Positions 34,115 through 61,340 of a stretch of 64,000 nucleotides of DNA are shown here, one piece after another. The notes beneath the pieces are model-generated. The model was not told where the DNA came from. It ran no database searches and saw nothing but the letters and a program-made list of their open reading frames with translations. How positions within the stretch are numbered: the stretch's first letter is position 1; each line of letters starts with the position of its first letter. The stretch lies in UHGV virus genome UHGV-0038492; one strand, written 5' to 3'. The translations under genes and the position numbers were made by a program. The DNA is from a virus.

Positions 34115-34185
34115 GTTTTCACTCTCAAATCTAGCGGCTGCTATACTGATTTGTGGGTAATGTAATTTCTCAAAAGGAAACACAA

Positions 34186-37700: not shown

Positions 37701-40652
37701 GTCTGCGGTGGTGTCGTGACGGTTGTAAACGATAACAACGTCGTCTTTCAGACCGATGTCACCACTGGCTTCAATATCCAGTTTCTTACCAATCGTTGCG
37801 CGTGCAGCTTCGGATACCACAGTAAACAGACGCATGTCTTTGTCTGGACCCATCGCATCCAACTCAACCCCGATGATCGACGTGTCAAGCGTTTCGCTGA
37901 GCTCATTACCAATCTCTGTTGCCGAGATAGTAAGATGTGAACCCAAGTAGTCGTTGATAACTTGAGACGTTTTCTTACGAATCTGCGTTAACAGATCGCT
38001 GTTGCTACGGTTAGCCGCTGTGAGGTAATAACGAACGGTAAACTGGTTTTCAGCCGGTTTCGGCGTCACCACCCCGTCTTCGGTACGTGCATCGATATAA
38101 CCCATCGTGGTGATAGGAACGAAATACCCTTCCGTACGCTCTAACAACATCGGTTTTAACGTCGGTAGAACCACGGTCACGTAGTTAACGATATTCTCAA
38201 TAACTGCGTTCAGATAGGATTTCGCAGACGCTGTGGTAGCGAATTTATAACGTGCGTCGAAGACCGCCATTTCACTACGGAACTTAATAGAACGAGATTT
38301 CGCAATCTTAGGATTACCGTACTCGTCTTTTACTAAGTCCCCTTCGTGGTGCAGGATAATCTGCTGGCCGGTTTCGTCAAGCTTAGGATCGCCTTTACGG
38401 TGTTCGTAAGTGATTTGTAGCGGTGGTGTACGGCCTGCGTCATACGTGTAAACCGGAACCCCATTCTCATCACGTTTCACCACGTCAATTTCCCACGTCG
38501 CTAACACGTCTTTGTCGTAATACTCGTAGTTGATGCTGTCAGTAACAGCACGCGCTTTACGCCAATAGTACGTCATCGCTTTACCCAGTTCGATTTTGAA
38601 TATCTCGTGGGTAATACCGATAGCGTCACGAGAAGGCGCTGTGATTAACGTATCCATCTCTACACGTTCGTAGTTCCCAGGGTAATAACCTGTGCAACCG
38701 TAGAACAGGTTAAAATCTGTCAGCAGTGGAACAGGTGTTTCCGTTGGGTTACTTCCGTTAATGCGGGTGTTGGTCAGTACCAGTTCGTCGTTACGGTCAA
38801 CGTCCAGGTTAGTTTCCAGCAAGAACTCCCAAACACGTTCACTGCCCTGCTTACCGACTAACGTACCGTTAATGTACGCCAAGGTGTTATCGGAATTACG
38901 AGGACGGAAAGACAGCTGTGCAAAGACTTGGTCATCAGTCAGTGCCTGGTAAGGTGCTTCTGACTTCGTAATCGTACGCAACACATAACCTGCTTCCGTT
39001 TTCTCGATAGTGTAGTCAGCAGTAACGACGCTGAGCTCCGTCGAGACGTTGGTCGCAATAAAGCGTTTGGAGTTTAATAGCGGTTTATCCAACTGGTAAA
39101 TACGCACGTCAATCGCTTTGTTGTTAATGTCAACAACGTAATGGAACGGTGTAAACAAATAACGGTTCGTGTTTGCTGCGTTAATCAAGTCTTCCTTACG
39201 CATGGTCTTCGCCAATACCGTCATCTCGGCATCTACAGTCAGACTGGTATCCGTAAAGCGATAGAGTGTGTCAGGAAGAATGGTCAGGCGATTACCGTTG
39301 ACTTTCACTGTCGGAAGATTAACCAGCTCGTTCCAGGAGAAATAGAACGGCGCAGTAATCGTACCAATCGGTGAGCTGACGTTAGCAATCGTCGATTCCA
39401 ACATCGGTGCTGTCATGAAGTACGTACGACTGGTCACATAGTCGTTAGGTTTAGACAGCGTAAGACCGTAATCGGAAACCGTAGCTTCAAGCTGCTTTTC
39501 CGTCACAGGTAATTTACGTGCACCCACAGCGTTATTAACAACGCGAGTACGTAAGTCACTGAACGAGAGCTGACTGCGACCACCCGACAGCATCTTCCCA
39601 GCTTTTGCTGCAAGCTGTTTAATAGAGAATGCTTTAATCGGGTTGATATAGTTCGCGTCATACTCTTCGTTTAAGTCACGTAGACTGAAGCTATACTCAT
39701 CAGACGGGTATGCAGAGATGTCTAACTCCAACGGCCCTAAGGTCGTATAGACGTCCATCCTGATAGTCCCACTGACGAGATTCTTCGCCATGTAAATAGA
39801 TGGAATCGTACAACGGATGTTGCCGTTACCCACCTGAATCAATGCTGTTGGCGTGTTCGGGTCGTAAACATCCCGACTGTGGGTGTGCTGTATCTCTACC
39901 CACTTGTTGCTGCCCGTTGCCTTCATCCAAACACGAACGTAGAAGAACTTGTTAGTGTAAGCACGGGTCATGACGAAAGTGTTGTTACCTTCGACAGTGT
40001 TACTTTCTTCTTTCACCGCATACTGCATAACCGGGATATGAATAGCCAGCAGCTGTGACGACGTTGTGTTAGTGGACGTTAGTTCCCATTCCAGGGCGTT
40101 CGTGGAAACTGGTGAAATCGGCGATTGTGTTTCAGTAATCCACAGTACCTGGAATGCCGGGTTCTCGTTCGTTCCGTATGGAAGTACACGGATTTCGATT
40201 GGGTACTGAATAGCAAACGTGTAACCAGAAACCGTAAAAACAGTGTCACGTGGGATAACGACTTTACGAACCCCCGCGATTTGCAACGGATACGCTTTCG
40301 AGATTAAGCTGTCAACGTCAATTAACAGTAACAGTTCTGTAGTAGCAGGCTGCGCAAAGACGTCAACGTAATCCACGTCTGACATGTGTCGGAACAGGTC
40401 ATCGTAGGTCTGTGCCATTGACGGGAACGTTTTAGGAATAGATTCCTGGAGCCCCATCAACGTCGCGTGTCCCATCATCGTTCCCATTTCTGCCAAATAA
40501 ACGACAGGGTCGGTAGGGTCACGGAGATAAATTTGACCATCGGCATCTTCAACATCTTGAAGCTGGTTTAGCAGCATTGTCTGCATCGCCGCAGGGTTGT
40601 GTGCGAACAGCAGAAGTTTCTTTGCCAAAGTATCGTAAGTTGTTGAACTCAT
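37698..40652 (-). CDS. large hypothetical protein (984 aa), plausibly structural
   Basis: long minus-strand ORF; start overlaps upstream stop (TGATG). Confidence 0.6.
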   Translation of the reverse strand: MSSTTYDTLAKKLLLFAHNPAAMQTMLLNQLQDVEDADGQIYLRDPTDPVVYLAEMGTMMGHATLMGLQESIPKTFPSMAQTYDDLFRHMSDVDYVDVFAQPATTELLLLIDVDSLISKAYPLQIAGVRKVVIPRDTVFTVSGYTFAIQYPIEIRVLPYGTNENPAFQVLWITETQSPISPVSTNALEWELTSTNTTSSQLLAIHIPVMQYAVKEESNTVEGNNTFVMTRAYTNKFFYVRVWMKATGSNKWVEIQHTHSRDVYDPNTPTALIQVGNGNIRCTIPSIYMAKNLVSGTIRMDVYTTLGPLELDISAYPSDEYSFSLRDLNEEYDANYINPIKAFSIKQLAAKAGKMLSGGRSQLSFSDLRTRVVNNAVGARKLPVTEKQLEATVSDYGLTLSKPNDYVTSRTYFMTAPMLESTIANVSSPIGTITAPFYFSWNELVNLPTVKVNGNRLTILPDTLYRFTDTSLTVDAEMTVLAKTMRKEDLINAANTNRYLFTPFHYVVDINNKAIDVRIYQLDKPLLNSKRFIATNVSTELSVVTADYTIEKTEAGYVLRTITKSEAPYQALTDDQVFAQLSFRPRNSDNTLAYINGTLVGKQGSERVWEFLLETNLDVDRNDELVLTNTRINGSNPTETPVPLLTDFNLFYGCTGYYPGNYERVEMDTLITAPSRDAIGITHEIFKIELGKAMTYYWRKARAVTDSINYEYYDKDVLATWEIDVVKRDENGVPVYTYDAGRTPPLQITYEHRKGDPKLDETGQQIILHHEGDLVKDEYGNPKIAKSRSIKFRSEMAVFDARYKFATTASAKSYLNAVIENIVNYVTVVLPTLKPMLLERTEGYFVPITTMGYIDARTEDGVVTPKPAENQFTVRYYLTAANRSNSDLLTQIRKKTSQVINDYLGSHLTISATEIGNELSETLDTSIIGVELDAMGPDKDMRLFTVVSEAARATIGKKLDIEASGDIGLKDDVVIVYNRHDTTAD

Positions 40653-41956
40653 CAGTTAGTACCTGCCTCTGTAACAAGACCATTGACGCTGTCAAGTAAT
40701 CCTGCTTTCTTGAGAATATATTGATAGTCTGCTTGGTAGACATACCAGGTAAGCTTGCGCCGTACGGAATCGATATGTGGATAGCCGTAATAGTTAAATA
40801 AAGGCAATAACTGTGGCGCGATAGGAACAAGTTGGCTGCTGGCCATCGGGATAAAATTCCCCGAAGCGACTGAGCCGGGTTGTGGGAGCATATCTGGGTT
40901 AAACATCCCAACGGTTTTATTGAACATCTCCATGTAAAGCGGATCGTTAAACCGTGCCCCGATTGCTTGCCAGTTGATGTTAATCGTTACATCGTCATTT
41001 AACTGTGGTTTTGAGTTATCGACGTTCGCCATTTGACCCGCGTTATCGTTCATCGGCCAGGCTACACAGATTGTCCAGAAACGGGTGATGTTCCCTAACG
41101 CATCGTAACGTAGACCGTAGATACGTGACTGGTAATCAATGCGTCGTTGGATGGAGTTGCGCATCTTCGGACGGAACTTACCCATCTTAACGCCCGCCAT
41201 ATACTCCAACCACACGCCCATCATTCGCATTAATGGGTCACCGTAAGGGTTGTTTAAGGACATTGACACAGAGAACGCGTTGTTGATTTCGTGCGTAGAA
41301 TCAACCATACCCCATTGTTCGCGCATCAACCCTTCACTGGCCATCCAGTTGTCGACGGACTGATCGGGTGTTCCGCTTAAACTGATCAGCTGTGTACTGA
41401 GTATTGGTATGAACGCTTGTAGATTATCGAATCTTACCTGCGGCATAAACGGAGTACCTAAGCGGTTTCTTCGTATCCCCGTTTTGCTCTCAACAGGTGA
41501 GTCCGAAAACCCTAATTCGAAATCAGGGTCGAGAGCAGCAAGTATCGAATAATCTAAAGAGTCCTTCGGCTGCAATGCCATGTTTGACATTTTACGCGAC
41601 TTGGCAATGTTGTCGTAGCACAGGTTGAAATCGGGCCGGGTAATAAATGTTAGACCGCCGTATTCTCGGTTGATTGGCGTGGGGTTAGACGCCATCATAT
41701 GGTTGAACCCCATGTAGGGGTTGGTCAAACGCTGCGCAGCAAGACCCAAACCTACAGTAAGGCGGATACGATCGTTCCATGCCGTAAGTTCGGTGTTTGC
41801 ATCGTAAGGTGTTGCCGGATTGTTGTTGCTGAGTCGGTTATTAAAATACCCGGCAACAGAAGGCACCGCGTCCGCGTTATTCGGATTGTGGAGAGAATCG
41901 TCGTAATCAGTATTCGGGTCATACCCCGGATCGTTCTTATCTGTCTCGTCACTCAT
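40652..41956 (-). CDS. hypothetical protein (434 aa)
   Basis: minus-strand ORF with GGAG 8 nt upstream of ATG. Confidence 0.6.
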   Translation of the reverse strand: MSDETDKNDPGYDPNTDYDDSLHNPNNADAVPSVAGYFNNRLSNNNPATPYDANTELTAWNDRIRLTVGLGLAAQRLTNPYMGFNHMMASNPTPINREYGGLTFITRPDFNLCYDNIAKSRKMSNMALQPKDSLDYSILAALDPDFELGFSDSPVESKTGIRRNRLGTPFMPQVRFDNLQAFIPILSTQLISLSGTPDQSVDNWMASEGLMREQWGMVDSTHEINNAFSVSMSLNNPYGDPLMRMMGVWLEYMAGVKMGKFRPKMRNSIQRRIDYQSRIYGLRYDALGNITRFWTICVAWPMNDNAGQMANVDNSKPQLNDDVTININWQAIGARFNDPLYMEMFNKTVGMFNPDMLPQPGSVASGNFIPMASSQLVPIAPQLLPLFNYYGYPHIDSVRRKLTWYVYQADYQYILKKAGLLDSVNGLVTEAGTN

Positions 41957-41982: not shown

Positions 41983-43089
41983 ATGTTAGAAAAAACGTTT
42001 GAGACAAGCGTTGTCTCTTTCCTCTCCAGACTTCCCATGCTATTTCGTTCGCGTGCGGAGTCGACGGAGGAATTTAACTCCGTGCTCTATAATGAGCACA
42101 TTACCTTAGTCGAACAAAGCCTGCTGGGTTTAGATTACCTTCCGGGAATTCTGGAGAAAATCCAAGTTTTGCTGGCAGGAAACCAACTTACTGCAATCTC
42201 ACTGTTAACGGGTGTGCCTGACGTTGATATTATCGGTACACTGGATCAAGTAAGTACCCGTCGTAGCGCACTCGATAACGCAGTGCGTAGCGGCTCACGC
42301 TTAGCAGCACTGGCAGTCGGCGAATCTTCCCGCCTAGGATTACCATCATACGATAAAATCGGCATTGCTGTGGGTGAATGCGCCCGCCGTGTCGCACAGG
42401 AATCCAAAGGTTCCGTTACCGGTGGTAAAGCAGACCCGATTAAACAACTGTTCGATCAGGAAGGGCTGTCTAACGGGAAAATGTTCTCTGTAACGTTTGA
42501 ACGTGACGGTAATAAAGTCGAACTTCCAATGCGTTTACGTTTGGACGTTAAGTCTCTTCCGACTGAGCAGATTGAAACCCTGATTGCATTCAGCGACCAG
42601 ACGAAAACGTTCTGGGAACGTTGGCTGCGTGCGCGTGTAGGTGCACTGAGCTATGTTAAAGACATTGCGTTCTGTAACGACCTGGTAGAAGAATACCGTA
42701 AGAACCGTTATCGCGATAAGTCAGGTTACTATCGTAAGATGATGGAGAAGAAAAACGGCAACTGGCTGTCTGGCTTGCTGACGCTGGCACCGTCTATTAA
42801 TAACGCTTCTTCTGTCATGGTGGTTTCTCAAGACACTATCGACGGTCTGACTGCCCAGCTAGGCGGTGAGTTTGACGATTTCAATATTCGTCAGCGTGTC
42901 TTCAAAGACACCTTAACCGTCTATTACGTGGTAGTGGACACCGCGTGGAACCGCGTTACTATTTATACTCGTGGTCAGAACGGTTCTCAGGAACTTGATA
43001 AATCCGATTTCAGCAAAGCGAAGTCCGGTAGCGCTGATGTGAACAAAATCATTGAAGCGTATCGCTCTGGCGCACAGCCAGTTCTTTAA
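41983..43089 (+). CDS. hypothetical protein
   Basis: 368-aa ORF with RBS; divergent from 40652..41956. Confidence 0.55.
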   Translation: MLEKTFETSVVSFLSRLPMLFRSRAESTEEFNSVLYNEHITLVEQSLLGLDYLPGILEKIQVLLAGNQLTAISLLTGVPDVDIIGTLDQVSTRRSALDNAVRSGSRLAALAVGESSRLGLPSYDKIGIAVGECARRVAQESKGSVTGGKADPIKQLFDQEGLSNGKMFSVTFERDGNKVELPMRLRLDVKSLPTEQIETLIAFSDQTKTFWERWLRARVGALSYVKDIAFCNDLVEEYRKNRYRDKSGYYRKMMEKKNGNWLSGLLTLAPSINNASSVMVVSQDTIDGLTAQLGGEFDDFNIRQRVFKDTLTVYYVVVDTAWNRVTIYTRGQNGSQELDKSDFSKAKSGSADVNKIIEAYRSGAQPVL

Positions 43090-44672: not shown

Positions 44673-45944
44673 ATGGCAAATTTCGCAAAAACTCGCGCCG
44701 CTCGTGAATCAATGGAAGCGGCCGATGAAGTAATCGACGGTATCAGCAACGTTGAACCGGCAGAAGAGAACCTGGACGTCCAGCTTGCAGAAGTAGCCTC
44801 TATGGATGGTGAACTGGATCAGCTGGAAACTGACGGTGAAACTTTGGCCGCCGATACTGAGCGTACTGAAGACGCTATCGATCAGGCGGAAGAAGCCGTT
44901 GCTAACGGTGAAGAAATGCCGGAAGAAGCGGTTGCCCTGCACGAAGTGGCCCAGGAATCCATCGCACGTCGTTGGTGCCTGGAACGTACCAAACTGGCTC
45001 GTGAATCCTATCGCCGTGGCCGTGGCATGACTGCTGCTGCGCAGGAAGGCTGGAAAGAAACCCTGAAAGATCTTTACGATCGTTTCATTCAGTTCTGTAA
45101 AGAAGTGATTGCGAAGATCAAAGACCTGAAACTGAAATATTTCAACGTCGGTAAGACCGCACAGAAACGTGCGAAGAAATATCAGGAAATGCTGCGTAAG
45201 CTGGGCAAACAGAAGAAAGATGAAATCTCTGGTGGCTTTATCACCAAGCTGTCGATCGAAGGTAAATTCGATGCTGCTGGCTCTATCGCTATTGCGAAAG
45301 AAGTTACCGCTGGCAAAGCTAAAGGTTCCATCAGTGTTCTGGAAAAACAAGCTGGTGAAGCTGTGACCGCTGTGAGCAAAGGTGACGACGACGCATTCAA
45401 AGCAATGCGTGGCGATCAGCCGGTAGAACTGTTTGGTAAAGCGGCTTCTAAACTGCACACTCTGCCGAACTTTGAAAAAGGTGATGCGTCCAAACTGCTG
45501 GCTCTGCCGGGCAACGCATACGTTCAGGCTGGTACTAAAGAACTGGCTGGCGGTCACAAGTTCACTGCAATTGCATTCATGAGCACCGGTGACGCGTCTG
45601 AAGATAAAGACGTGAAAACTCCGTCCGTTTCTGAAATGGCTGGCGCTGCTTCTGCTCTGGAAGCAATCGGTAAAGGCTTCGAAGCTGTACTGAAAGATTT
45701 CCGTGCTTATGACGCTGAAATCGTGAAGCTGCAACAGGCTGCTGAGAAAGCTGCTACCGCACTGAATACCGAAAAAGACCAGAGCAAGTGGGATGGCCTG
45801 CGTAATGCACGTCAAGCTGCTGATTGGTCTGTGAAGAACTACCAGACCCTGAACCGCGCCGTTAGCTATGTTGCTAACACCGTTATTAGCGGTCTGAACG
45901 GCTACCTGGGTGCTGGTATCGGTGCTTACGAAAAATCTAAATAA
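44673..45944 (+). CDS. abundant protein, paralog A (candidate major head/inner-body-type virion protein)
   Basis: 423 aa; strong RBS; heavy codon optimisation (368-aa antisense open frame); paralogous to 46027..47292. Confidence 0.7.
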   Translation: MANFAKTRAARESMEAADEVIDGISNVEPAEENLDVQLAEVASMDGELDQLETDGETLAADTERTEDAIDQAEEAVANGEEMPEEAVALHEVAQESIARRWCLERTKLARESYRRGRGMTAAAQEGWKETLKDLYDRFIQFCKEVIAKIKDLKLKYFNVGKTAQKRAKKYQEMLRKLGKQKKDEISGGFITKLSIEGKFDAAGSIAIAKEVTAGKAKGSISVLEKQAGEAVTAVSKGDDDAFKAMRGDQPVELFGKAASKLHTLPNFEKGDASKLLALPGNAYVQAGTKELAGGHKFTAIAFMSTGDASEDKDVKTPSVSEMAGAASALEAIGKGFEAVLKDFRAYDAEIVKLQQAAEKAATALNTEKDQSKWDGLRNARQAADWSVKNYQTLNRAVSYVANTVISGLNGYLGAGIGAYEKSK

Positions 45945-46026
45945 TCATTTAGATTCGTAGTTCCGTACAGTTCTTGAAATAAATCATCAGGGGAACAACG
46001 CGTTCCCCTTAGAGGAAAAGCTTAAA

Positions 46027-47292
46027 ATGGCGAATTTCTACAAAAACAAAATTGCTCGTGAGTCTATGGAGTCTACTTCTACTGTAGTTCCAGACGGCAT
46101 CGAACTGCCAGCAGAATCTGTAGAAGGTACTCTGGCCGATATCGAGCATGACACCAAACCGATCGAAGCAATGGACGCAGACGCAGAGCTGCTGGCCGAA
46201 GACGGCGACGAAACCGATGCTCAGCTGGAAGTCCTGGACGAAGCTCAGGCTGCTGCTGACGGTGAAGGCGCTGAAGACGGCGAAGAGCCGATGGACGCTG
46301 AAGAAGACATGCCGGACGACGCTGCTAAAGCGCTGGACGTTGCTCAGGAATCCATCCGTTCTCGCTGGAACTTCGAACACCGTTCTTCTGTTGCTCACGA
46401 ATCCTACGGTTCTCGTAACCGCCGTCAGGTTGCTCGTGAATCCCTGTGGGAAGACATTAAAGCCTTCATGAAACGTATCCTTGATTGGCTGAAAGAACAG
46501 GGTCGTAAGATCAAAGATCGTTGGCTGAAATTCCACAACCAGGGTAAATCTATCCAGGCGCGTGCGAAGAAAAACGACGCAATTATCCGTAAGCTGGGCA
46601 AACAGAAGAAAGATGAAATCTCTGGTGGTTTCATTAAATCTCTGTCCATCGACGGTAAGTTCGTTGGTGACGACTCCACGAAACTGAAAGGTATTCTGAC
46701 CCAGGTTTCCAGCTTCTATAGCTCTAAAATGCCTTCTATGGCTGCTAAAGCCTCTGCCATGGTTGAAGATGTTACTAAAGGTAACGGCGCTAAGATTGAA
46801 AACCTGAAAGCCGAGTTCGGTGAACTGGCTAAACAAGATAATCTTAAGAACTTCAAGCTCGGTAACATGGCTGTTAAGTCTGAGTACGATAACGAAGGCG
46901 GTTTCTCCACTACCTTCGTTGAGTCTGAAAACACCGTTGAAACCAGCGTGAAAACTCCGTCTGTTGGCGATCTGGCTAAACTCAATGCCTTCTTCAACGA
47001 AGTGGGTAAACAGATTGAGAAGAACGTTCAGGATTATCGTAAAGTTGAAAGCGCACGTAAGTCTTTCGAAGACAGCATCGATAAGCTGCTGAAAGAAATC
47101 GACAAAGTTAAGATCGATGAAAAACCGGAACTGACCGAAAACGTGCGTCGCGCTCGTCGTTACGTTACCAGTGTTAACCAGGCTCTGTCTCTGGGTGAGA
47201 AAGTTATTGCTTCTACTCAGAAACATCTGGCTAACGGTCTGAACGGTTATATCTCAGCAGGTATTGCCGCTTACGAAAAGACTAAAGCTTAA
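46027..47292 (+). CDS. abundant protein, paralog B
   Basis: 421 aa; shared blocks 'MANF..K..ARESME', 'IRKLGKQKKDEISGGFI', 'VKTPSV', 'LNGY..AGI.AYEK.K'; 405-aa antisense open frame. Confidence 0.7.
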   Translation: MANFYKNKIARESMESTSTVVPDGIELPAESVEGTLADIEHDTKPIEAMDADAELLAEDGDETDAQLEVLDEAQAAADGEGAEDGEEPMDAEEDMPDDAAKALDVAQESIRSRWNFEHRSSVAHESYGSRNRRQVARESLWEDIKAFMKRILDWLKEQGRKIKDRWLKFHNQGKSIQARAKKNDAIIRKLGKQKKDEISGGFIKSLSIDGKFVGDDSTKLKGILTQVSSFYSSKMPSMAAKASAMVEDVTKGNGAKIENLKAEFGELAKQDNLKNFKLGNMAVKSEYDNEGGFSTTFVESENTVETSVKTPSVGDLAKLNAFFNEVGKQIEKNVQDYRKVESARKSFEDSIDKLLKEIDKVKIDEKPELTENVRRARRYVTSVNQALSLGEKVIASTQKHLANGLNGYISAGIAAYEKTKA

Positions 47293-52842: not shown

Positions 52843-54161
52843 TGTCGTTTGGTCGGTTACAGAACATAGCAAACGTGCATATCGCACAAGCGGCGGGATT
52901 ACCGGCCATCGAATACGTACCTATCATTACGGTACGTGGCACAGTTATCAGCGTGTTTAAAACGTTGTCGATAATCCATGCCAGTAACTTCGCGCAGGAC
53001 TTAACGACCATCACCCATCTTACCGTGATGATACCGTTAAGCCAACAGCGTGTGTTAACGTCTTCCGCAGACGGGGATTTGTCCGTGAAAATTCTAATGC
53101 GGACAATGAACAAGAAAACCGTTGCGAAACTCGACTATCGGGGTATCGTCGTAAACAACCACGATCCCGACATGGAATCACCCACGATGTTCTTAGGTGA
53201 GTCTGACCAGAAAGCGTTAGCGGTCGTCACCCTGGAGCTGATGGACGAGTCAATGTGGTTCTTACGTTGCCGACAAGTCGGTGGGATTTATCACGAGACA
53301 GACGGTCTTAGTGTTGTTCGTGCACTGCTGTCAGATACGTTACCTACTGGTGATGCGCCAGAAGGTCAGTTGGTGGGCGTGGAATACGAGGAAGAGGAGC
53401 AACAACCGTATCGGGATATTTTGATTCCTGACTCGGAAAGTTTCTTGTCTGTGTTCGATTACCTTCAGAATCGTTACGGGGTTTATAGCCAAGGGCTGGG
53501 GGTGTTCCTTTACAAACACCGCTGGTATATTTTCCAACCTTGGGATTCTAAGAAGTTTTCATCAGCGAAGAATAAGCTGGTGATTATAAATCTACCGAAA
53601 GAGAAAGCAGCGTATCTGAATAAGACTTGCCACATTGACGGTGACGTGATTTACCTGATTTGTGGGGGTGATGTACACACCTTCGAAGATAAAGACTCCT
53701 TAGCACTAAACCAAGGTACCGGTTATCGTGTGGGGTCTATCCGTGCGTTGGATGGTCGTGCGTCCTCGTTCTCGTCAGGTGATGTTTCTGCTACAACGTC
53801 TGATTCGTTCGTGTCAGCGGCTGACCCGACGCAATATCCGGGTGGGGTAGTTAACGCACCAATTGACCCGAACCAACACTTCTCGGACACAGATAAACCG
53901 CAACGGTCTAAGTTAGCGGCGGCGAAAGGAACGCTAACCGCAACAACCTGGAACGCATCAACGTATGGCCTACTCCGTCCGGGGATGGCAGTAAAATACA
54001 TTTATGCGAATAACTATGGTGTATACACGCGTTACGGAACATTGGTTGCAGAAGTTTTCCAAGGTGCAATTGATGGCGGTTCAGCGGCTTCACCACGGTT
54101 TAATACCATTAGTCAGTTGACGTTGTGGCTGACTAATGAAAATTTTACATCCACAACGTAA
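52842..54161 (+). CDS. hypothetical protein
   Basis: 439-aa ORF, start overlaps upstream stop. Confidence 0.5.
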   Translation: MSFGRLQNIANVHIAQAAGLPAIEYVPIITVRGTVISVFKTLSIIHASNFAQDLTTITHLTVMIPLSQQRVLTSSADGDLSVKILMRTMNKKTVAKLDYRGIVVNNHDPDMESPTMFLGESDQKALAVVTLELMDESMWFLRCRQVGGIYHETDGLSVVRALLSDTLPTGDAPEGQLVGVEYEEEEQQPYRDILIPDSESFLSVFDYLQNRYGVYSQGLGVFLYKHRWYIFQPWDSKKFSSAKNKLVIINLPKEKAAYLNKTCHIDGDVIYLICGGDVHTFEDKDSLALNQGTGYRVGSIRALDGRASSFSSGDVSATTSDSFVSAADPTQYPGGVVNAPIDPNQHFSDTDKPQRSKLAAAKGTLTATTWNASTYGLLRPGMAVKYIYANNYGVYTRYGTLVAEVFQGAIDGGSAASPRFNTISQLTLWLTNENFTSTT

Positions 54162-54187
54162 GTTATGTCGACAGCAACCTAAAGGAT

Positions 54188-54994
54188 TTGTTAATGAGCA
54201 ATTTACTTACTTTCCGCATGTCTGGTCAAACGTTAATGCAGATTGACGAGTACGAAAAAGAACATTTCGCTAAACCGTCTAAACTGTTAGAACGTTGCTT
54301 AAAGGTTATTCCAGGCGGCGAGCATTGTCAGCTAGATTTCGTCATGGCGTCTTCTGCTGACAAAACGGTCTCTGTTATCTACACGGTTGACGGAGTACAG
54401 GGCCATCGCTTATTACCGATTGAAGAAAAAGGTTCTTTGGGTAATTTGTTGTTCTTGCACGCAATCACGACAGCGGTAGTGACGGGTGCACTGGAAGCAC
54501 AGTACGGTTTCGCGTATTGCTATTTCTACGCACAGAAGCTGGCGAATGCGGTAGTTCCAGGAGAGCCGGAAACGTATCCGAAGTATATCGAACGTTTGCT
54601 TCCGACACACTTTGCTGAGTCTGACGACTATGAGTTCAATGCTTTCCGTTTCACGATGATTGGCGAAGCGCGCGATCCTGAAAACACCATTGCGTTACGT
54701 GCCGTTGTTCGTTACGCGGTAATTTCGTCTGACAGCGGAATGGCAAGCAACTTCAACGAAGTGTTCCCGGTTATGCAACTCGGTCCGTATATCACGTTTA
54801 ACGCGTACGTACCGTTTACTTGTCAGTTAATCGGCCCGCAGGATAACGATTCTATCCTCCCGATTACTGAAGAGAAAGGTCTGCATATTCGTGACGCCGT
54901 AGAAGTCATCAACGATAAACGTTTTACGATCTCATCGAAAAGCGGCATTGCTGATGAAGAACTTGCGGTCGTGAACAAAATGCAAGTGATGTAA
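54188..54994 (+). CDS. hypothetical protein
   Basis: 268-aa ORF with RBS; followed by terminator. Confidence 0.55.
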   Translation: MLMSNLLTFRMSGQTLMQIDEYEKEHFAKPSKLLERCLKVIPGGEHCQLDFVMASSADKTVSVIYTVDGVQGHRLLPIEEKGSLGNLLFLHAITTAVVTGALEAQYGFAYCYFYAQKLANAVVPGEPETYPKYIERLLPTHFAESDDYEFNAFRFTMIGEARDPENTIALRAVVRYAVISSDSGMASNFNEVFPVMQLGPYITFNAYVPFTCQLIGPQDNDSILPITEEKGLHIRDAVEVINDKRFTISSKSGIADEELAVVNKMQVM

Positions 54995-54997
54995 AAT

Positions 54998-55040
54998 TAT
55001 CCCGTTACCTTTGTGGGTAACGGGATGTCCTTTTATTTAC
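54998..55040 (+). terminator. rho-independent terminator
   Basis: 'tcccgttacctttgtgggtaacggga' followed by T-rich tract. Confidence 0.65.
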
Positions 55041-55149
55041 TCGTAAATGCGTCTTAGACGCTGTTTTACACCTTAAGACGATTAATGGTGTTTAAAAAAT
55101 AAAAGGTCGTCAGAATGCGATACAGCGCGTTTTAGAGGGTGTTTTAATT

Positions 55150-55190
55150 AAAATATTTTCAGATATATATTACTTAGGTGAGAGAATTAC
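55150..55190 (+). promoter_or_regulatory. phage promoter-like motif, copy 6 (near-identical to copy 5)
   Basis: 'aaatattttcagatatatattacttaggtgagagaattacg'. Confidence 0.5.
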
Positions 55191-55230
55191 GTAATACTCA
55201 TTTATCGAATACCTAATTAGGAGCTATATC

Positions 55231-55374
55231 ATGATTTCTGTAAAACACAAAAAAGCTATCTTCGCTGTTGTTATCGCTGTTGTTCTGGGTTGCCTGTACC
55301 TGGATATCGACAAAGGCTACGACACTTGCATCGACAACGGTAATTCCGTTGCACAGTGCACTGGTCGTGGTTAA
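55231..55374 (+). CDS. small hydrophobic peptide (47 aa), below ORF-track cutoff
   Basis: RBS 'taggagctatatcATG'; 'MISVKHKKAIFAVVIAVVLGCLYLDIDKGYDTCIDNGNSVAQCTGRG'; optimised codons; own terminator. Confidence 0.6.
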   Translation: MISVKHKKAIFAVVIAVVLGCLYLDIDKGYDTCIDNGNSVAQCTGRG

Positions 55375-55378
55375 TGTA

Positions 55379-55410
55379 TAAGGCACCTTCGGGTGCCCTT
55401 AATTTTTTAT
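55379..55410 (+). terminator. rho-independent terminator
   Basis: 'ggcaccttcgggtgcc' followed by T-run. Confidence 0.7.
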
Positions 55411-55428
55411 CTATTGGAGTATTTTTAA

Positions 55429-56244
55429 ATGAAAACTATCAAAGACTATTTTCCGACTGGCATCAGTAGCGACCATTTCGTACCAGCGGATTCGATGGAA
55501 ATTATCAGCAAGTCCAGTAGCGGTGAGTTTGTTATTTACCTAACTAATGTAGGAGGTAGACCGAGTTTCATTCTCCTCGAGCCTAAAGAAATAAGTGTCT
55601 GTACGGTTGCTGTAAATGTTTCTTGCGGCCTTAGCTGGTTGAAGTCCAGGCTGTTACGCTTGCTCGTGGTTAATACTGACCCAGCAGTACGCTTAGAGCG
55701 ATTAAAAGCAATGAATGAAGTTATCCTGGGTTTTCTGCTACATCCTATTTACGGTAACCCTAAAGTCGCAGAAGCAATACAAAACGTACAGTTAGTAGAG
55801 TGGAGTGATATTAACTACGAGCGTGCCTCCGAATTTGTATTACAGGCAGACGACAACACCGGTGTGTTCTCACAAACGTTGGATAACGTAACGGTAACCG
55901 CGCGTGTGTTGTTTGGTTTACAACGCGTAGAGTTTGAATTGAAACACGTCTACGTGAGCAATGAGCCAGAGATGGTGGAAACGTTGATTCGTGCGTTCGC
56001 ATATCCGTTAGACGGTGAATGGGAACAGCAGATTAACGGAGCGTTGGAAGCCATGCATTTCCTGGCTCAAACGTTAAGGAAGGATGAGAAATTGAAAGGT
56101 CGTGTTTATCCAGAACACGATTTTGTTTGTGAAGAATGTGGGGCACAGTATCAAATCCGTGTTCCTTTAACCGGCCTAACATTCCCGCAAGCCAACGTGC
56201 AATGTAAGGAATGTGGCCATGTTCAATACGTAGCGATTAAATAA
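55429..56244 (+). CDS. hypothetical protein with C-terminal CxxC...CxxC zinc-ribbon-like motif
   Basis: 271 aa; 'CEECGAQYQ...CKECGH'. Confidence 0.55.
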   Translation: MKTIKDYFPTGISSDHFVPADSMEIISKSSSGEFVIYLTNVGGRPSFILLEPKEISVCTVAVNVSCGLSWLKSRLLRLLVVNTDPAVRLERLKAMNEVILGFLLHPIYGNPKVAEAIQNVQLVEWSDINYERASEFVLQADDNTGVFSQTLDNVTVTARVLFGLQRVEFELKHVYVSNEPEMVETLIRAFAYPLDGEWEQQINGALEAMHFLAQTLRKDEKLKGRVYPEHDFVCEECGAQYQIRVPLTGLTFPQANVQCKECGHVQYVAIK

Positions 56245-56248
56245 AAGC

Positions 56249-56296
56249 AACCCCTAATCCCGAAAAGGATTAGGGGTACACTTTATTTATTTTCGC
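56249..56296 (+). terminator. hairpin terminator
   Basis: 'cccctaatcccgaaaaggattagggg' followed by T-rich tract. Confidence 0.6.
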
Positions 56297-56320
56297 AATT
56301 TCAACATAGGAGAAAAGTTC

Positions 56321-56479
56321 ATGAAACATGAACAGTTGTTTCAAAGGTTAAACGAGTTGTCCGTAAAACAGCTCGAATTTCAACGAAGGGTTAGTGAAAT
56401 AGCGCAACCAACGTTAACTCAGCCCAAAGTTGCTTATCCAAGAAACACCCAGTTGATAGTTGAAAGGAGAAGTAACTGA
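56321..56479 (+). CDS. small protein (52 aa), below ORF-track cutoff
   Basis: RBS 'taggagaaaagttcATG'; followed by hairpin plus T-run. Confidence 0.45.
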   Translation: MKHEQLFQRLNELSVKQLEFQRRVSEIAQPTLTQPKVAYPRNTQLIVERRSN

Positions 56480-56486
56480 TAAAAAC

Positions 56487-56515
56487 AAGGGGGTGCTGCC
56501 ACACCCCTTTTTTAC
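56487..56515 (+). terminator. rho-independent terminator
   Basis: 'ggggtgctgccacacccc' followed by T6. Confidence 0.6.
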
Positions 56516-56601
56516 GCTTTAACTTTTCCAAAGAGAAGTTAAAGCAGTAGGGGATGACCGACATCCCCTACTGTACGGTGCCAACGCATAAAGACGTTGG
56601 C
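56516..56601 (+). other. three tandem perfect stem-loops (9-, 10- and 7-bp stems) in intergenic region; candidate structured RNA or regulatory element
   Basis: 'ctttaactt..aagttaaag', 'gtaggggatg..catcccctac', 'gccaacg..cgttggc'. Confidence 0.4.
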
Positions 56602-56633
56602 GTTTCTTACAACGTTACTAAAGGTAATGAAAA

Positions 56634-56804
56634 ATGAACGATTATCAATTACAGATGTTTAATGCGGCGATGCGTAACCGTGAAAAACAAATTCAGTTCA
56701 ACCAACGCATGGATGAATATGTTCGCCTCGGTCTTGTTGCGGCACCTAAAACATCTAATAACCAGAATATACAGCAACCCTATGTAAGGAGAACTGGCTA
56801 CTAA
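56634..56804 (+). CDS. small protein (56 aa), below ORF-track cutoff
   Basis: RBS 'aaaggtaatgaaaaATG'; followed by hairpin 'agggggtg..caccccct'. Confidence 0.45.
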   Translation: MNDYQLQMFNAAMRNREKQIQFNQRMDEYVRLGLVAAPKTSNNQNIQQPYVRRTGY

Positions 56805-56941
56805 TTAACTAATACAGGGGGTGCACTACCACCCCCTACTTGGTTCAGTAGTTGACTTTCGTTCATAATTATTAGATGTCTTGTTTTTTTTGCTTTTCAG
56901 GACGCATAAGGGGTCGTAGGGGGAGCCGAAGCTCCCCAGAC

Positions 56942-58504
56942 TCAAAAGAGTTCGTCACCCATACCGCCTGTAAAGACGTTAATCGACGATGCAGTCACTG
57001 TTTCTTCTTTATCGCAATCCCAAGGCAGAATGCCAACTTCACGGAAAGGTATTACTGTATAATGGTAAGCTTCTTTAGTATCGATAATTGTACGGTGTTT
57101 ACCACGTTGTACTTCTAAGTAACTATGTCCATTGACAACACGTTTGTTAAAATACATCTCACCGTCAGCTTCGTTATCCAAGCTGGAGCAGTTATCGTAA
57201 AGACCGCGACCTGGTAAGTTCTTACAGAAACTTGCTGGGTCTAACGCTTTTAATTTTTTGCCTTCTGGTGAGATTTGGTGTGGTGCTAACAAGAAACCAC
57301 GGTTACGTACTACCTGGATGTTTCGAGCGATACGATAAATTTCTTTAATGTCGCTACCGGCAATCCCGTTACCGTGACCTGCTTTACTGATAGTCCCGAA
57401 ATAGTCTCCGCGAATCCCAGCTACATGATAACCTCGACGCTTTAAGTCCAGTATTAAGTCGTTTAAGTAGTGTATTTTAAAATCTGAGTTTGTGTGTTTC
57501 TGAAAGATGTATTCCCAACCGTTAGCCCGCATTTTACTACAGAGGTAGTCCGACATTTTTGTGTTGTGTAAAGCTTTCTCTTCGTCGGTAGCGTTTTCAG
57601 AAGCAACCATAACCGGTGCTTCACCTTCAAAATGACCGTAGAGCGCTTGGTACGCATACGCCAAGTTAACGTCCAGTTCGTTCTCTAAACTTAAATCGAG
57701 AATAACCGGCTGCAAATCCCCTTTAACATTTTCCATTACTTTTTCGGGTGTATTGAATACCGGAATACTGATAGACAACAACAGACTAAAAAGTGATTTA
57801 CAGTTAAAAGGCAGTGCAGGCATTAACCAAAGCTCTTCGGTAATCCCTTTGTTACAACCCAGCATCTGGTTAATGGCTTTCCATCCGGTACGTAAACCGT
57901 TACCCGCTGCTTTCTTACTGATGGAGTCGAACACATGCACGAACGGTGCACGGTTATCCGTAATAAGCTCGCCTACGAGTGAGGGAATCTTATTATGAGA
58001 GCGTTCACTGAACGTAGAGAGACTATCTCTGAGGTCGTTGAGCGCCGTTTGTAAATCAACGCGCGTTTCGGTTCCGTTCAGTGCGCCTAACGTACGACCT
58101 AATTTTTGTTTCAGTTGTACGCCTTGAATAGCTTGACGTAATTGGAAGTAGTATTGTGCTACTTGACGGTTAAGATGCTCGATGCGTGCTTCTGGTTCTT
58201 CTGGAATATCATCTTCCAGGAATTTGGTAATCGTATCGTATAGAGGACGTATTTGCGTAGTGGCCAACTTCAAACGTTTCATGACGTTTGTGTGGTCGTA
58301 AGGCATACCGCCGTCTATGATGGATGTGATGATATCCTTGATTTCGACGAGGGCGGCACGTTCGTCACCTTCCTCTACGTAATCAGGAAGCTTAGCCTCT
58401 AACAGCACTTTTCTTATGACCTCATGATCCTTCTCAGGGTCGGTCAACAGACTTTCAGTGTATAGTGTGGCTAATGCGGTTATCAACATCATTTTGTTAT
58501 TCAT
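56942..58504 (-). CDS. hypothetical protein (520 aa), antisense to the surrounding plus-strand cluster
   Basis: minus-strand ORF; AAGGA upstream of ATG; hairpin 'ggggagccgaagctcccc' just beyond its stop. Confidence 0.6.
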   Translation of the reverse strand: MNNKMMLITALATLYTESLLTDPEKDHEVIRKVLLEAKLPDYVEEGDERAALVEIKDIITSIIDGGMPYDHTNVMKRLKLATTQIRPLYDTITKFLEDDIPEEPEARIEHLNRQVAQYYFQLRQAIQGVQLKQKLGRTLGALNGTETRVDLQTALNDLRDSLSTFSERSHNKIPSLVGELITDNRAPFVHVFDSISKKAAGNGLRTGWKAINQMLGCNKGITEELWLMPALPFNCKSLFSLLLSISIPVFNTPEKVMENVKGDLQPVILDLSLENELDVNLAYAYQALYGHFEGEAPVMVASENATDEEKALHNTKMSDYLCSKMRANGWEYIFQKHTNSDFKIHYLNDLILDLKRRGYHVAGIRGDYFGTISKAGHGNGIAGSDIKEIYRIARNIQVVRNRGFLLAPHQISPEGKKLKALDPASFCKNLPGRGLYDNCSSLDNEADGEMYFNKRVVNGHSYLEVQRGKHRTIIDTKEAYHYTVIPFREVGILPWDCDKEETVTASSINVFTGGMGDELF

Positions 58505-58517
58505 GGAGCATCCTTAA

Positions 58518-59042
58518 ATGCAAATTCGTTTTAGTCCACCGTGGGAAGTTCAGCCTAACATAGATAAAGGCGCTGCCGTTAAAAGTGTAGAATTGCTCCA
58601 GGCAGGGTTCTTTAACTGGTTATATGACTGTCCGAATGGTTTCAGTTCTATCATTATACCTGAAGTAAGTCGTTCTGCTATTTATAAAGCGTTAATGGCT
58701 CCGCCTGTACTTCCAGGTAAATATTATGATCAGGTGTTACGTCTGGTCGAATCAGGCGAAAAGGTTTCCCTTGACGATTTATATGGGGAAACAATTCCTT
58801 GTCGCTTACGCTGGGTCTTTACCCAACGTGGTGATACGATTGTGGCGTCATTTGCAGAAGCGAAGTCCGGTTCGGGTTTTTCTTCGGGTGAAGACCACGC
58901 TGCGAAAAAGATGTTCTGCGCAGAACTTTTTAAATATATGCGTACCAAGACTCGCGTCGTGGATGACTGCTTCAGTACCTCAACGCAGTTTGCCGCTAAC
59001 GAAGTGCTGACGCAATTATACGCATGTCATTTATCTCATTAA
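58518..59042 (+). CDS. hypothetical protein
   Basis: 174 aa; RBS 'ggagcatccttaaATG'; start 13 nt from divergent gene start. Confidence 0.55.
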   Translation: MQIRFSPPWEVQPNIDKGAAVKSVELLQAGFFNWLYDCPNGFSSIIIPEVSRSAIYKALMAPPVLPGKYYDQVLRLVESGEKVSLDDLYGETIPCRLRWVFTQRGDTIVASFAEAKSGSGFSSGEDHAAKKMFCAELFKYMRTKTRVVDDCFSTSTQFAANEVLTQLYACHLSH

Positions 59043-59054
59043 GGTATTAAACAA

Positions 59055-61340
59055 ATGAAAGATACCCGAATCTCTAATTTAGAGAAACTCGTAGAAGCCG
59101 GTACTAGTCTGGCCCAAAACGTCATCGGCAACAACACCGCCAGCGAAATGTGGAATACGATTGTTGCAGGCGAGTCCGTACGCAGCAACGCAAAAGTGTT
59201 TGGCGTTCTGCGTGACGAAGCATCACAGCACTATGCCAACGCTTTTGGTGGCAAGAAAATGTCTCATGCTGCGACTGTCGCCTCCGCAATGATTCTGGGT
59301 GCAGCTAACCACGGTAAAGACCTGCAAGAACGTGTTGCCCAGGAATACGCTAAGCCGGAATTCCACACCAAGTATAACCTGGATATTGGTATCCCTGGTG
59401 CGCAAGGTGGTGACTGGGGTCGTGAGCGCATGGTTGTTGCTCAGGAATATTACAGCAACAAAGACTACGACAAAAACCTGGGCCTGACCTGGACCCTGAA
59501 CGTACGTGCTCTGGAAACTCAGTCCAAGTTTGCTGAAACGCTGTTCCCGACCATTACCGTTGACACCAACGATGTTGGTATTACCGTACGTACTAAAGTG
59601 ACTACCGTTTCTCGCGGTATCATGAACGCGCTGCTGAGCAAAGACGTGGTTGAAGACCATCGTCGTCCGCTGCACAACGCACTGACTGACCACACCGTTC
59701 TCCAGGACGAAGCGATCAACATCGTTCCTTACGTAATGGAAACCGGTGAAAACCAGGAATACTTCGTAAGCGAAGAACTGGTTCCGAACGAAAAAGTTCG
59801 CCTGGGTCGTGTACCTCCGTACCCGACTAACTACCTGAGCTTTGCAAACGACACGCTGAACCTGTTCCAGCTGTCTGCGCATCCGGGTATCGTTCAGGAA
59901 GGTTACGATGAAACTGATGAAATCGCACCGGGTTGTGCTCTGGGCAGCCTGCTGATTTCTGTACGTAAACCTGCCGAAGAAGCGAAAGCAGGTAAATTCA
60001 TCAAACTACACGTTCGTGACATGCAGTTCGCAACCTTCCAGCGTCCTGCTGAAGGTGACGGCCGTGAACTGGTTCTGCAATTCCGTCGTACCGCGTTCTC
60101 TCTGAATGCGAAAACCACTGACTGGAAAGGCGACGCTATTCCGGCTCTGCAAGCACTGGGTCAGAACTCCTACACCCTGCGCTACGTTATCACCATCACC
60201 ATGTCCCTGTTCACCAGCGGCCAGTTCGGTGGTAAAGTAGACATTTCCGGCCACAAACTGGAAATCGAAGGTCTGTACGATGCAACTGGTAACAAAGTTG
60301 ATACCAAGTCTGGTACCGGTAAAGTTATCCTGGACGGCCTGAAACTCGAACTGATGGGCTGGCGCTTCGATGGTACTCGTACCAACGAAAACCGTCGTAC
60401 CCAGGGTCTGCTGCTTGACCCAATTTGGGAACAGGAAAACTACAAACTGCAATACGGTTCTCCGATTCTGACCAAGTCTCCGGTTGGTGTTGAATACGAC
60501 GACACTGAACGTCTGGACGACCTGATCTCTGCGGTGAACATCCGTAACGAACAGCTGGCTATTACTCAGACGCTGTCTTACACTGAAGCAGTACGTAACG
60601 CAGCCGCTGCGATGATCACTCCGTGGGACAAACCGGCTATCCGTGGTCTGGGCCGTCACTGGGTTGCTCCGTGGTTCAAAGAGTCTGACTACAAAGTCGA
60701 TGAAGTTGTTCAGTCTCTGGATACCAAAGAAGCGCTGATCAACGCTCGTCAGGGTCTGTTGCAGCGTATCGGTAGCCAGGTAACTCAGGCTATCCAGGAT
60801 TCTCGTTTCATTCCTGCACTGCGCCTGCTGACCGCTGATCCGGACATTCTGCCGAAAGTTATCATCGCAACTGACGAACCGACTGCATCTATGCTGCTGC
60901 TGGTTCAGGGCGACCAACGTCTGCTGGGCGACCGTTATGAATACGAAGTCGTTACCACCAACGATGACCGCTGGCGTATCTACAACGCAGCTGACGATTC
61001 CTGGACTCGTCGTCTGCAATGGTTCCTGAAAGTTCCGACTGCGGACGATGGTTCCTACTGCGTACTGAACTGGGGTAACCACTTCTGGTCTCCGATCATG
61101 GTTACCAACATCAACATCCAGCGTAACGGTTCTACTTCTAAAGAACTGGCTGTACAGCCGCGTAACGCGCATATCTGCCACTGCCCGATCACTGGTCTGA
61201 TTTGGGTTAAAGGCATCACCAAACTGGTTGAAGAAAAACTGGCTTACAACGTTTCTGTAGAACAGAACGGCCAGAAACAAACCGACGGTGGTGTAGCAGG
61301 TAATGTTGCTGGCGACGGTAAAGACAAAGCTGGTAAATAA
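59055..61340 (+). CDS. candidate major capsid protein (abundant structural protein)
   Basis: 761 aa; strong RBS; extreme codon optimisation (424-aa and 219-aa antisense open frames); size matches phiKZ-type major capsid proteins. Confidence 0.65.
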   Translation: MKDTRISNLEKLVEAGTSLAQNVIGNNTASEMWNTIVAGESVRSNAKVFGVLRDEASQHYANAFGGKKMSHAATVASAMILGAANHGKDLQERVAQEYAKPEFHTKYNLDIGIPGAQGGDWGRERMVVAQEYYSNKDYDKNLGLTWTLNVRALETQSKFAETLFPTITVDTNDVGITVRTKVTTVSRGIMNALLSKDVVEDHRRPLHNALTDHTVLQDEAINIVPYVMETGENQEYFVSEELVPNEKVRLGRVPPYPTNYLSFANDTLNLFQLSAHPGIVQEGYDETDEIAPGCALGSLLISVRKPAEEAKAGKFIKLHVRDMQFATFQRPAEGDGRELVLQFRRTAFSLNAKTTDWKGDAIPALQALGQNSYTLRYVITITMSLFTSGQFGGKVDISGHKLEIEGLYDATGNKVDTKSGTGKVILDGLKLELMGWRFDGTRTNENRRTQGLLLDPIWEQENYKLQYGSPILTKSPVGVEYDDTERLDDLISAVNIRNEQLAITQTLSYTEAVRNAAAAMITPWDKPAIRGLGRHWVAPWFKESDYKVDEVVQSLDTKEALINARQGLLQRIGSQVTQAIQDSRFIPALRLLTADPDILPKVIIATDEPTASMLLLVQGDQRLLGDRYEYEVVTTNDDRWRIYNAADDSWTRRLQWFLKVPTADDGSYCVLNWGNHFWSPIMVTNINIQRNGSTSKELAVQPRNAHICHCPITGLIWVKGITKLVEEKLAYNVSVEQNGQKQTDGGVAGNVAGDGKDKAGK

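Follow-up and report, generated by a model that had tools for sequence, protein, structure and literature searches.

In phages of the phiKZ type, an RNA polymerase encoded by the phage itself transcribes the middle and late genes, and the late promoter consensus of phiKZ consists only of TATG, with G as position +1 (PMC4666361, PMC7618050). The model late promoter, P119L, is the TATG promoter of gene 119 (PMC4666361, PMC7618050); the tetranucleotide is necessary but not sufficient (PMC4666361). Three consecutive promoters precede the capsid gene in 201phi2-1 and phiKZ (PMC11512511). Divergently oriented beside gene 119 and the capsid gene lies a gene for a DnaB-like protein (phiKZ gp118, 201phi2-1 gp197), and in the Chimalliviridae helicase and capsid gene belong to core block 5 of the conserved gene order (PMC10299810). 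Group 1 jumbo phages are characterized by a DnaB that is divergent yet probably active (PMC7824862). RAY gp315, an ortholog, was found inside the phage nucleus (PMC10299810), and phiKZ gp118 is among the listed nuclear proteins (bioRxiv 10.1101/2024.03.27.586873). Here we describe the corresponding locus of virus genome UHGV-0038492, of which a stretch of 64,000 nucleotides (nt), the window, was analysed. The minus-strand open reading frame (ORF) at 56942-58504 encodes, with high confidence, the replicative helicase of a nucleus-forming jumbo phage of the SPN3US/phiEaH2 type, in its ancestral place by the capsid genes and most likely with TATG promoters embedded in coding sequence.

Source phage and layout of the locus

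Judged from its sequence, the window is a previously unrecorded SPN3US/phiEaH2-like member of the nucleus-forming Chimalliviridae. Nucleotide searches matched only SPN3US-, phiEaH2- and CR5-like jumbo phages, at about 77-80% identity, the hosts of which are Salmonella, Erwinia, Cronobacter, Proteus and Escherichia. In the phage collection, which does not hold the window phage itself, the best relative shows 84% protein identity. A 97.4%-identical contig is present in the Logan assembly of ERR12310711. Four features make up the junction and its flanks.

56942-58504, minus strand: coding sequence of the divergent DnaB-like replicative helicase, 520 amino acids, ATG start (Pfam and PHROG matches, predicted fold, invariant residues)
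58505-58517, between the strands: head-to-head spacer of 13 nt, GGAGCATCCTTAA, with both Shine-Dalgarno sequences inside (read from the sequence)
58518-59042, plus strand: gp119-like gene, 174 amino acids, homologue of phiKZ gp119 and 201phi2-1 gp198, virion structural protein (PHROG 8266 at 1.1e-95; position and annotation in 201phi2-1 and PA7)
59055-61340, plus strand: major capsid protein of the phiKZ type (Pfam PF25620 at 1.4e-207; PHROG 3231 at 1.2e-278)

The gp119-like gene is the first of the capsid transcription unit. A preliminary description of this DNA had noted a 520-amino-acid minus-strand ORF whose ATG lies 13 nt from that of the plus-strand gene at 58518, and the ORF coordinates agree. 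It had also called this the sole minus-strand gene in a plus-strand block of roughly 15 kb. The gene is indeed alone in its polarity, all other supported genes there being on the plus strand, but the block is longer, ~22 kb, beginning at 41983 and extending as far as the window does.

The minus-strand gene encodes a divergent DnaB-like protein

Profile hidden Markov model searches and structure prediction agree on a divDNAB protein with a DnaB fold. The product matches Pfam PF20307, divDNAB ('Divergent DnaB-like ATPase'), at 4.9e-126 (420.6 bits, where the family cutoff is 26, with all 356 positions of the model covered) and PHROG 3213, 'DnaB-like replicative helicase', at 7.5e-199 (covering 1-506 of 509). 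By tblastn, a homologue is found in 295 phage records, all phiKZ-type jumbo phages, and the orthologs include SPN3US gp73, phiKZ gp118, 201phi2-1 gp197, EL ORF076 and RAY gp315. SPN3US gp73 (ACQ60_gp193), phiEaH2 gp258 and a putative helicase of Stratton have the same length and 83-84% full-length protein identity. The genes of these SPN3US-like phages share the minus orientation, the 13-14-nt spacer sequence and the gp119-like and capsid neighbours; the phages differ from the window in overall sequence (~79% nucleotide identity) and carry a different small-ORF region on the helicase 3' side. phiKZ gp118 and 201phi2-1 gp197 fall into the same PF20307 family, with only ~27% identity. Neither of the papers on phiKZ transposon and antisense-oligomer screens mentions gp118.

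A search of the PDB with the single helicase sequence gave no significant match. A profile of 28 homologues, with identity down to 23%, matched Geobacillus DnaB (2r6a) at 9.7e-6 in HMMER, pairing PALPhnaKTlF with AARPSVGKTAF (Walker A, H1), raDYlg with iDYLQ (DYL, H2) and PHQls with SQLS (SQL, H3). The AlphaFold2 model has a mean predicted local distance difference test score (pLDDT) of 86.8, and its top 50 Foldseek matches are all DnaB, T4 gp41 or G40P (E down to 3.3e-14). As these alignments extend over ~500 columns, the N-terminal domain and linker helix are included in the DnaB match. The model thus predicts a full-length divergent DnaB, with an N-terminal helical domain, a linker helix and a C-terminal RecA-like ATPase domain. 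The predicted two-tier fold, the linker helix, motifs H1a, H2, H3 and H4 and the Arg finger are shared with the superfamily 4 hexameric helicases, namely bacterial DnaB, T4 gp41 and SPP1 G40P. In contrast to these, the window protein shows 12-16% identity, leaves the Pfam DnaB_C model unmatched, lacks the P-loop Gly and carries a lineage-specific insertion after H1a. One distant homologue (P0073) is matched by both PF03796 (DnaB_C) and PF20307.

Nine residues are invariant among the 28 homologues: the P-loop K236, E274, D367, Q410, D443, N444, D447, K469 and R471. E274 corresponds to the catalytic Glu (H1a), D367 to the Walker B Asp (H2), Q410 to the sensor Gln (H3), D443/N444/D447 to H4 and K469/R471 to the Lys/Arg finger; the H1a, H4 and finger assignments come from our own motif mapping and not from the HMMER alignment. 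The Walker A motif reads 229-PALPFNCKS-237, compared with the canonical GxxxxGK[ST]. K236 is invariant and S/T237 conserved, while the Gly before the Lys is replaced by Cys; across the family this position is C, A, G or Y. Such a P-loop agrees with the divergent DnaB described for group 1 jumbo phages. The protein would be an active helicase: it would form a ring and unwind phage DNA inside the phage nucleus, and would work alongside the equally divergent family-B polymerase.

A core gene in its ancestral position

Divergent placement of the helicase by the capsid genes recurs in SPN3US, phiEaH2, CR5, EL, Goslar, 201phi2-1 and the phiKZ-like PA7. In the window the helicase likewise adjoins the gp119-like and capsid genes with the order and orientation of core block 5. 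On this evidence, the gene belongs to the chimallivirus core and occupies its ancestral position, a known gene in a known arrangement. As a helicase gene it brings no novelty, being one more ortholog of the described core helicase of nucleus-forming jumbo phages.

Three other accounts of the gene deserve consideration. The opposite polarity within a long plus-strand block had led to the suggestion that the gene may be recently acquired; on such a reading it would be a moron or a horizontally transferred cassette. Its 3' side does adjoin a hairpin-rich, variable small-ORF region, where a 97%-identical phage has an extra module. Against this, the order helicase (minus), gp119-like (plus), major capsid (plus) is kept in 14/14 chimalliviruses examined, and helicase trees are congruent with whole-genome trees (PMC10299810). 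Composition is also typical, with GC content, GC at third codon positions (GC3) and codon choice all within about 1.2 standard deviations of the genome mean (GC 0.434 versus 0.462 ± 0.023; GC3 0.428 versus 0.479 ± 0.042; synonymous-choice score -1.096 versus -1.084 ± 0.07). Synteny and composition thus refute a recent insertion. We give practically no credence to the notion that a plus-strand gene lies here, with the ORF as its untranslated shadow. Long shadow ORFs do occur elsewhere in the window (60006-61280, minus, opposite the capsid gene; 46009-47226, minus). Across 56942-58504, however, the plus strand holds no ORF longer than 81 amino acids, the family matches are strong, full-length homologues down to 23% identity keep the catalytic motifs, and the DnaB-like fold is confidently predicted. 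In addition, synonymous sites are near saturation with the protein conserved, only 14.7% of the amino-acid-invariant codon columns being codon-invariant. Homology, fold and codon pattern thus exclude a shadow frame, the one finding that the preliminary description had named as able to overturn it.

A subtler possibility is that the protein has a DnaB fold but is not a fork helicase, acting instead as a loader-like, recombination or nucleus-associated ATPase, perhaps with a modified P-loop that changes its chemistry. Several observations speak against the helicase assignment: the Walker A motif PALPFNCKS has Cys in place of the canonical Gly before Lys; Pfam DnaB_C (PF03796) gave no match to the protein at E <= 0.01; the Pfam family name promises only a 'DnaB-like ATPase'; and the literature reports no helicase activity or other biochemistry for any divDNAB member (PMC7824862). 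Nevertheless, the P-loop Lys, the catalytic Glu, the Walker B Asp, the sensor Gln and the Lys/Arg finger show no variation and the P-loop Ser/Thr is conserved; the model has the complete two-tier architecture of DnaB; and this is the sole DnaB-like protein of the core genome, with localization to the phage nucleus (PMC10299810). We therefore regard a role other than fork helicase as improbable.

The intergenic spacer is reduced to two ribosome-binding sites

Spacer lengths between the two start codons vary among relatives of the window as follows.

SPN3US: 14 nt
phiEaH2, Asesino and pEa_SNUABM_29: 14 nt each
Huxley, Kwan and pEa_SNUABM_9: 13 nt each
CR5 and Derbicus: 11 nt each
EL: 25 nt
Goslar: 39 nt
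201phi2-1: 128 nt
PA7 (phiKZ-like): 139 nt

In ten SPN3US-like phages of five genera, the spacer is thus 11-14 nt long and nearly invariant in sequence, consisting of GGAGCA(T/A)CCTT plus 0-3 bases. GGAG (58505-58508, plus) is the ribosome-binding site of the gp119-like gene, 9 nt before ATG 58518, and AAGGA (58515 to 58511, minus) is that of the helicase, 6 nt before ATG 58504. Each of these sites abuts the start codon of the opposite gene, from which it follows that each mRNA leader must reach into the other gene. A 13-nt gap is also too small for a promoter, hence any dedicated promoter lies in the coding sequence of the opposite gene. In phiKZ and 201phi2-1, by contrast, the two genes stand 128-139 nt apart, and the TATG promoter, which drives the neighbour gene (PMC4666361), sits in intergenic DNA; a single plus-strand TATG occurs in the long spacer, 47 nt (PA7) and 39 nt (201phi2-1) before gene 119. 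In the SPN3US-like clade the gap has contracted to 11-14 nt, leaving only the two ribosome-binding sites.

Conserved TATG blocks inside both coding sequences

We codon-aligned both genes in the ten SPN3US-like phages and looked for conserved nucleotide blocks, with the following candidates.

58411-58420, plus strand: invariant TTCTTATGAC, candidate TATG-type promoter for the gp119-like and capsid genes (10/10 phages)
57984-57998, plus strand: invariant 15 nt GGAATCTTATTATGA, the longest invariant run of the helicase gene (10/10 phages)
58558-58567, minus strand: invariant TTATCTATGT within the gp119-like coding sequence, candidate helicase promoter (10/10 phages)
58623, 58725 and 58782 (58623-58785), plus strand: extra TATG sites in the gp119-like coding sequence, candidate capsid-gene promoters (conserved in 9/10, 10/10 and 10/10 phages)

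Within the first block, TATG at 58415-58418 lies inside the helicase coding sequence on its antisense strand and has the sequence form of a phiKZ late promoter upstream of a late gene, with a putative start at G58418, 100 nt before ATG 58518. In the helicase frame this block corresponds to the rare codons GTC-ATA-AGA, which account for 13%, 7.9% and 5.5% of their families. The gene at 58518 is the homologue of phiKZ gene 119, and the site is a candidate functional counterpart of P119L. The 15-nt run (TATG 57994-57997) is a candidate second, upstream promoter facing the capsid genes, and 58776-58787 (plus), GATTTATATGGG, is also among the longest invariant runs. Toward the helicase, no minus-strand TATG of the two genes is conserved apart from the one at 58562-58559. 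The rare Ile codon ATA keeps it in place, and the start would fall at 58559, 55 nt before ATG 58504.

No 4-mer in the two genes is better conserved than TATG/CATA, with 5 of 13 occurrences invariant compared with 6.7% for all 4-mers (Fisher p = 0.001). TATG is also the most depleted non-palindromic 4-mer in the window, occurring 244 times versus 418 ± 18 in dinucleotide shuffles. Within genes, synonymous-codon shuffles gave 273 ± 11.5 on the sense strand (165 observed) and 95.7 ± 7.7 on the antisense strand (50 observed). The extended motifs TATGAC and TTCTTATGAC are rarer than expected and do not recur in the rest of the window, which leaves support for the 4-nt TATG core alone. A scan for sigma-70-like sites found 3 versus 8.3 ± 2.7 expected, fewer than by chance, and a host-type promoter at the junction was accordingly rejected. 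A phiKZ early-promoter core, TATATTAC, had 1 match versus 1.8 expected, which is uninformative, and RNA folding of the 5' leaders was no better than in shuffles.

Most likely, then, both units would start at short TATG-type promoters of the phage polymerase, each embedded in the opposite gene. The capsid-directed start would be G58418, possibly with others at 57997, 58626, 58728 and 58785, which would parallel the three consecutive promoters of 201phi2-1 and phiKZ (PMC11512511); the helicase-directed start would be 58559 on the minus strand. We infer promoter use, start sites and timing from the sequence. The idea that the promoters lie inside coding sequence, raised before this analysis, is plausible: the gap leaves no room for them and conserved TATG motifs occur at the expected places. 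A difference in timing, likewise suggested, would be plausible where a replication gene faces late structural genes; we found no expression-timing data for this helicase gene in any phage.

Several points count against embedded TATG promoters. The spacers of Goslar and EL are short as well, and neither phage has a plus-strand TATG within 200 nt upstream; the TATG promoter rule may therefore be specific to one clade. The consensus has been established only in phiKZ and 201phi2-1, no promoter or transcriptome paper for SPN3US was among the literature matches listed, and a late-type TATG is not what one would expect ahead of a replication gene, where an early or middle promoter would be anticipated. 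Moreover, the blocks also encode conserved amino acids, every one of them lying within a conserved peptide segment (VIRK, SHNKIP, NIDK), and their invariance is partly due to protein selection. It is possible, if unlikely, that the TATG blocks are not promoters at all, and that the encoded protein, the codon context or something else explains their conservation. Transcription of the gp119-like and capsid genes would then come from distant promoters or by read-through, and an unrecognized early or middle promoter would serve the helicase. The motif is just 4 nt long, and in PA7 a AAAATTAC-like middle-promoter motif (motif from PMC4666361) lies on the helicase side of the spacer. What tells against this account is that the rare codons ATA, AGA and GTC are invariant in ten phages despite synonymous sites that are otherwise near saturation, and that the same tetranucleotide leads all 4-mers in conservation while also being among those most strongly avoided. 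Five hairpins also stand between the upstream plus-strand genes and the capsid unit, and the small plus-strand ORFs there each have their own hairpin, which argues against simple read-through.

If the starts at 58418 and 58559 are used, the two mRNAs would be complementary to each other over about 142 nt of their 5' leaders. An interlocked junction of this kind could act as a timing switch, with late capsid transcription shutting down helicase expression as 58418 (plus) and 58559 (minus) fire through each other; we consider this doubtful. Were it true, the route would be polymerase collision, or pairing of the 142-nt leaders with occlusion of both ribosome-binding sites, and the end of replication-gene expression would be coupled to the start of head assembly.

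With embedded TATG promoters as the favoured reading, the comparative result is of modest value: in the SPN3US-like clade, the region of the phiKZ P119L-type promoter has collapsed to a 13-nt spacer, and the candidate promoters are invariant TATG blocks kept inside coding sequence by rare codons. For a phage group still lacking a transcript map, candidate start sites can thus be named precisely enough to be tested. Combined with genome-wide TATG avoidance, the blocks lend independent sequence support to the idea that the short TATG signal is in use outside Pseudomonas phages.

One further element within the gp119-like coding sequence is a 23-nt run at 58913-58935 (plus), GTTCTGCGCAGAACTTTTTAAAT, invariant in the ten phages and ~120 nt before the capsid ATG. 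It contains a perfect 14-nt palindrome followed by T5, and as RNA it folds no better than shuffles. It is possibly a protein-binding site or an attenuator.

Other tight junctions exist in this genome. Divergent starts are separated by 26 nt between 40652-41956 (minus) and 41983-43089 (plus), and divergent gene starts appear to overlap at 34153-34249. Given these, coding-sequence-embedded promoters may be general here.

Hairpins and small ORFs on the helicase 3' side

The gene had been described as bounded by hairpin-rich DNA. This is true of the 3' side, which has five hairpins between 56250 and 56937, but the 5' junction has none. In 54900-59200 we counted 12 terminator-like hairpins, compared with 4.2 ± 2.3 in shuffles. 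Two hairpins on this side are described below.

56920-56937, minus strand: GC-rich hairpin GGGGAGC-UUCG-GCUCCCC, starting 4 nt past the helicase stop (-16.5 kcal/mol, z = -1.97)
56816-56837, plus strand: hairpin ending the upstream small-ORF series, convergent with the helicase gene (-18 kcal/mol, z = -2.8)

The first has no U-tract and is probably a terminator or 3' stabilizer. A hairpin follows the helicase stop in 10/10 phages; the stems differ between lineages yet pair in each (GGGGAGC/GCUCCCC, GGGAGGC/GCCUCCC and CUGGAGAC/GUCUCCAG, for example). Directly past this hairpin, 56810-56906 (minus) contains a conserved (G)TTTATGCGTCCTG, an A8-10 run and a second GC-rich hairpin, a pattern seen in 7/10 relatives and absent from Kwan, CR5 and Derbicus. 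The segment could be a minus-strand small RNA of ~90 nt starting at TATG, or a conserved 3' untranslated region of the helicase mRNA. An Rfam scan of 54000-60000 gave only a sub-threshold, terminator-like match to CrcZ.

Farther upstream on the plus strand, 55231-56804 holds three small ORFs (47, 52 and 56 amino acids), each with a Shine-Dalgarno sequence and its own terminator hairpin. The 47-residue product has a lipobox-like AVVLGC and matches PHROG 8574. In the 97.4%-identical Logan contig (2277-2539 of its reverse complement), an extra module of ~337 nt with a 61-amino-acid ORF is inserted at the hairpin 56479-56552, and hence the small-ORF array varies between near-identical phages.

Other observations in the window

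Tandem paralogous internal head protein genes lie at 44673-45944 and 46027-47292 (plus), both PHROG 2497, and a long shadow ORF without homologues runs opposite each of them on the minus strand. One of these, 46009-47226, was considered as a competing minus-strand gene and rejected; it has no family match, and the overlapping plus-strand ORF at 46027-47292 is the internal head protein. Over the whole window, CTAG has an observed/expected ratio of 0.26. GATC is the most depleted tetranucleotide (observed/expected 0.45, z about -19), which suggests avoidance of GATC-targeting restriction or Dam-related systems.

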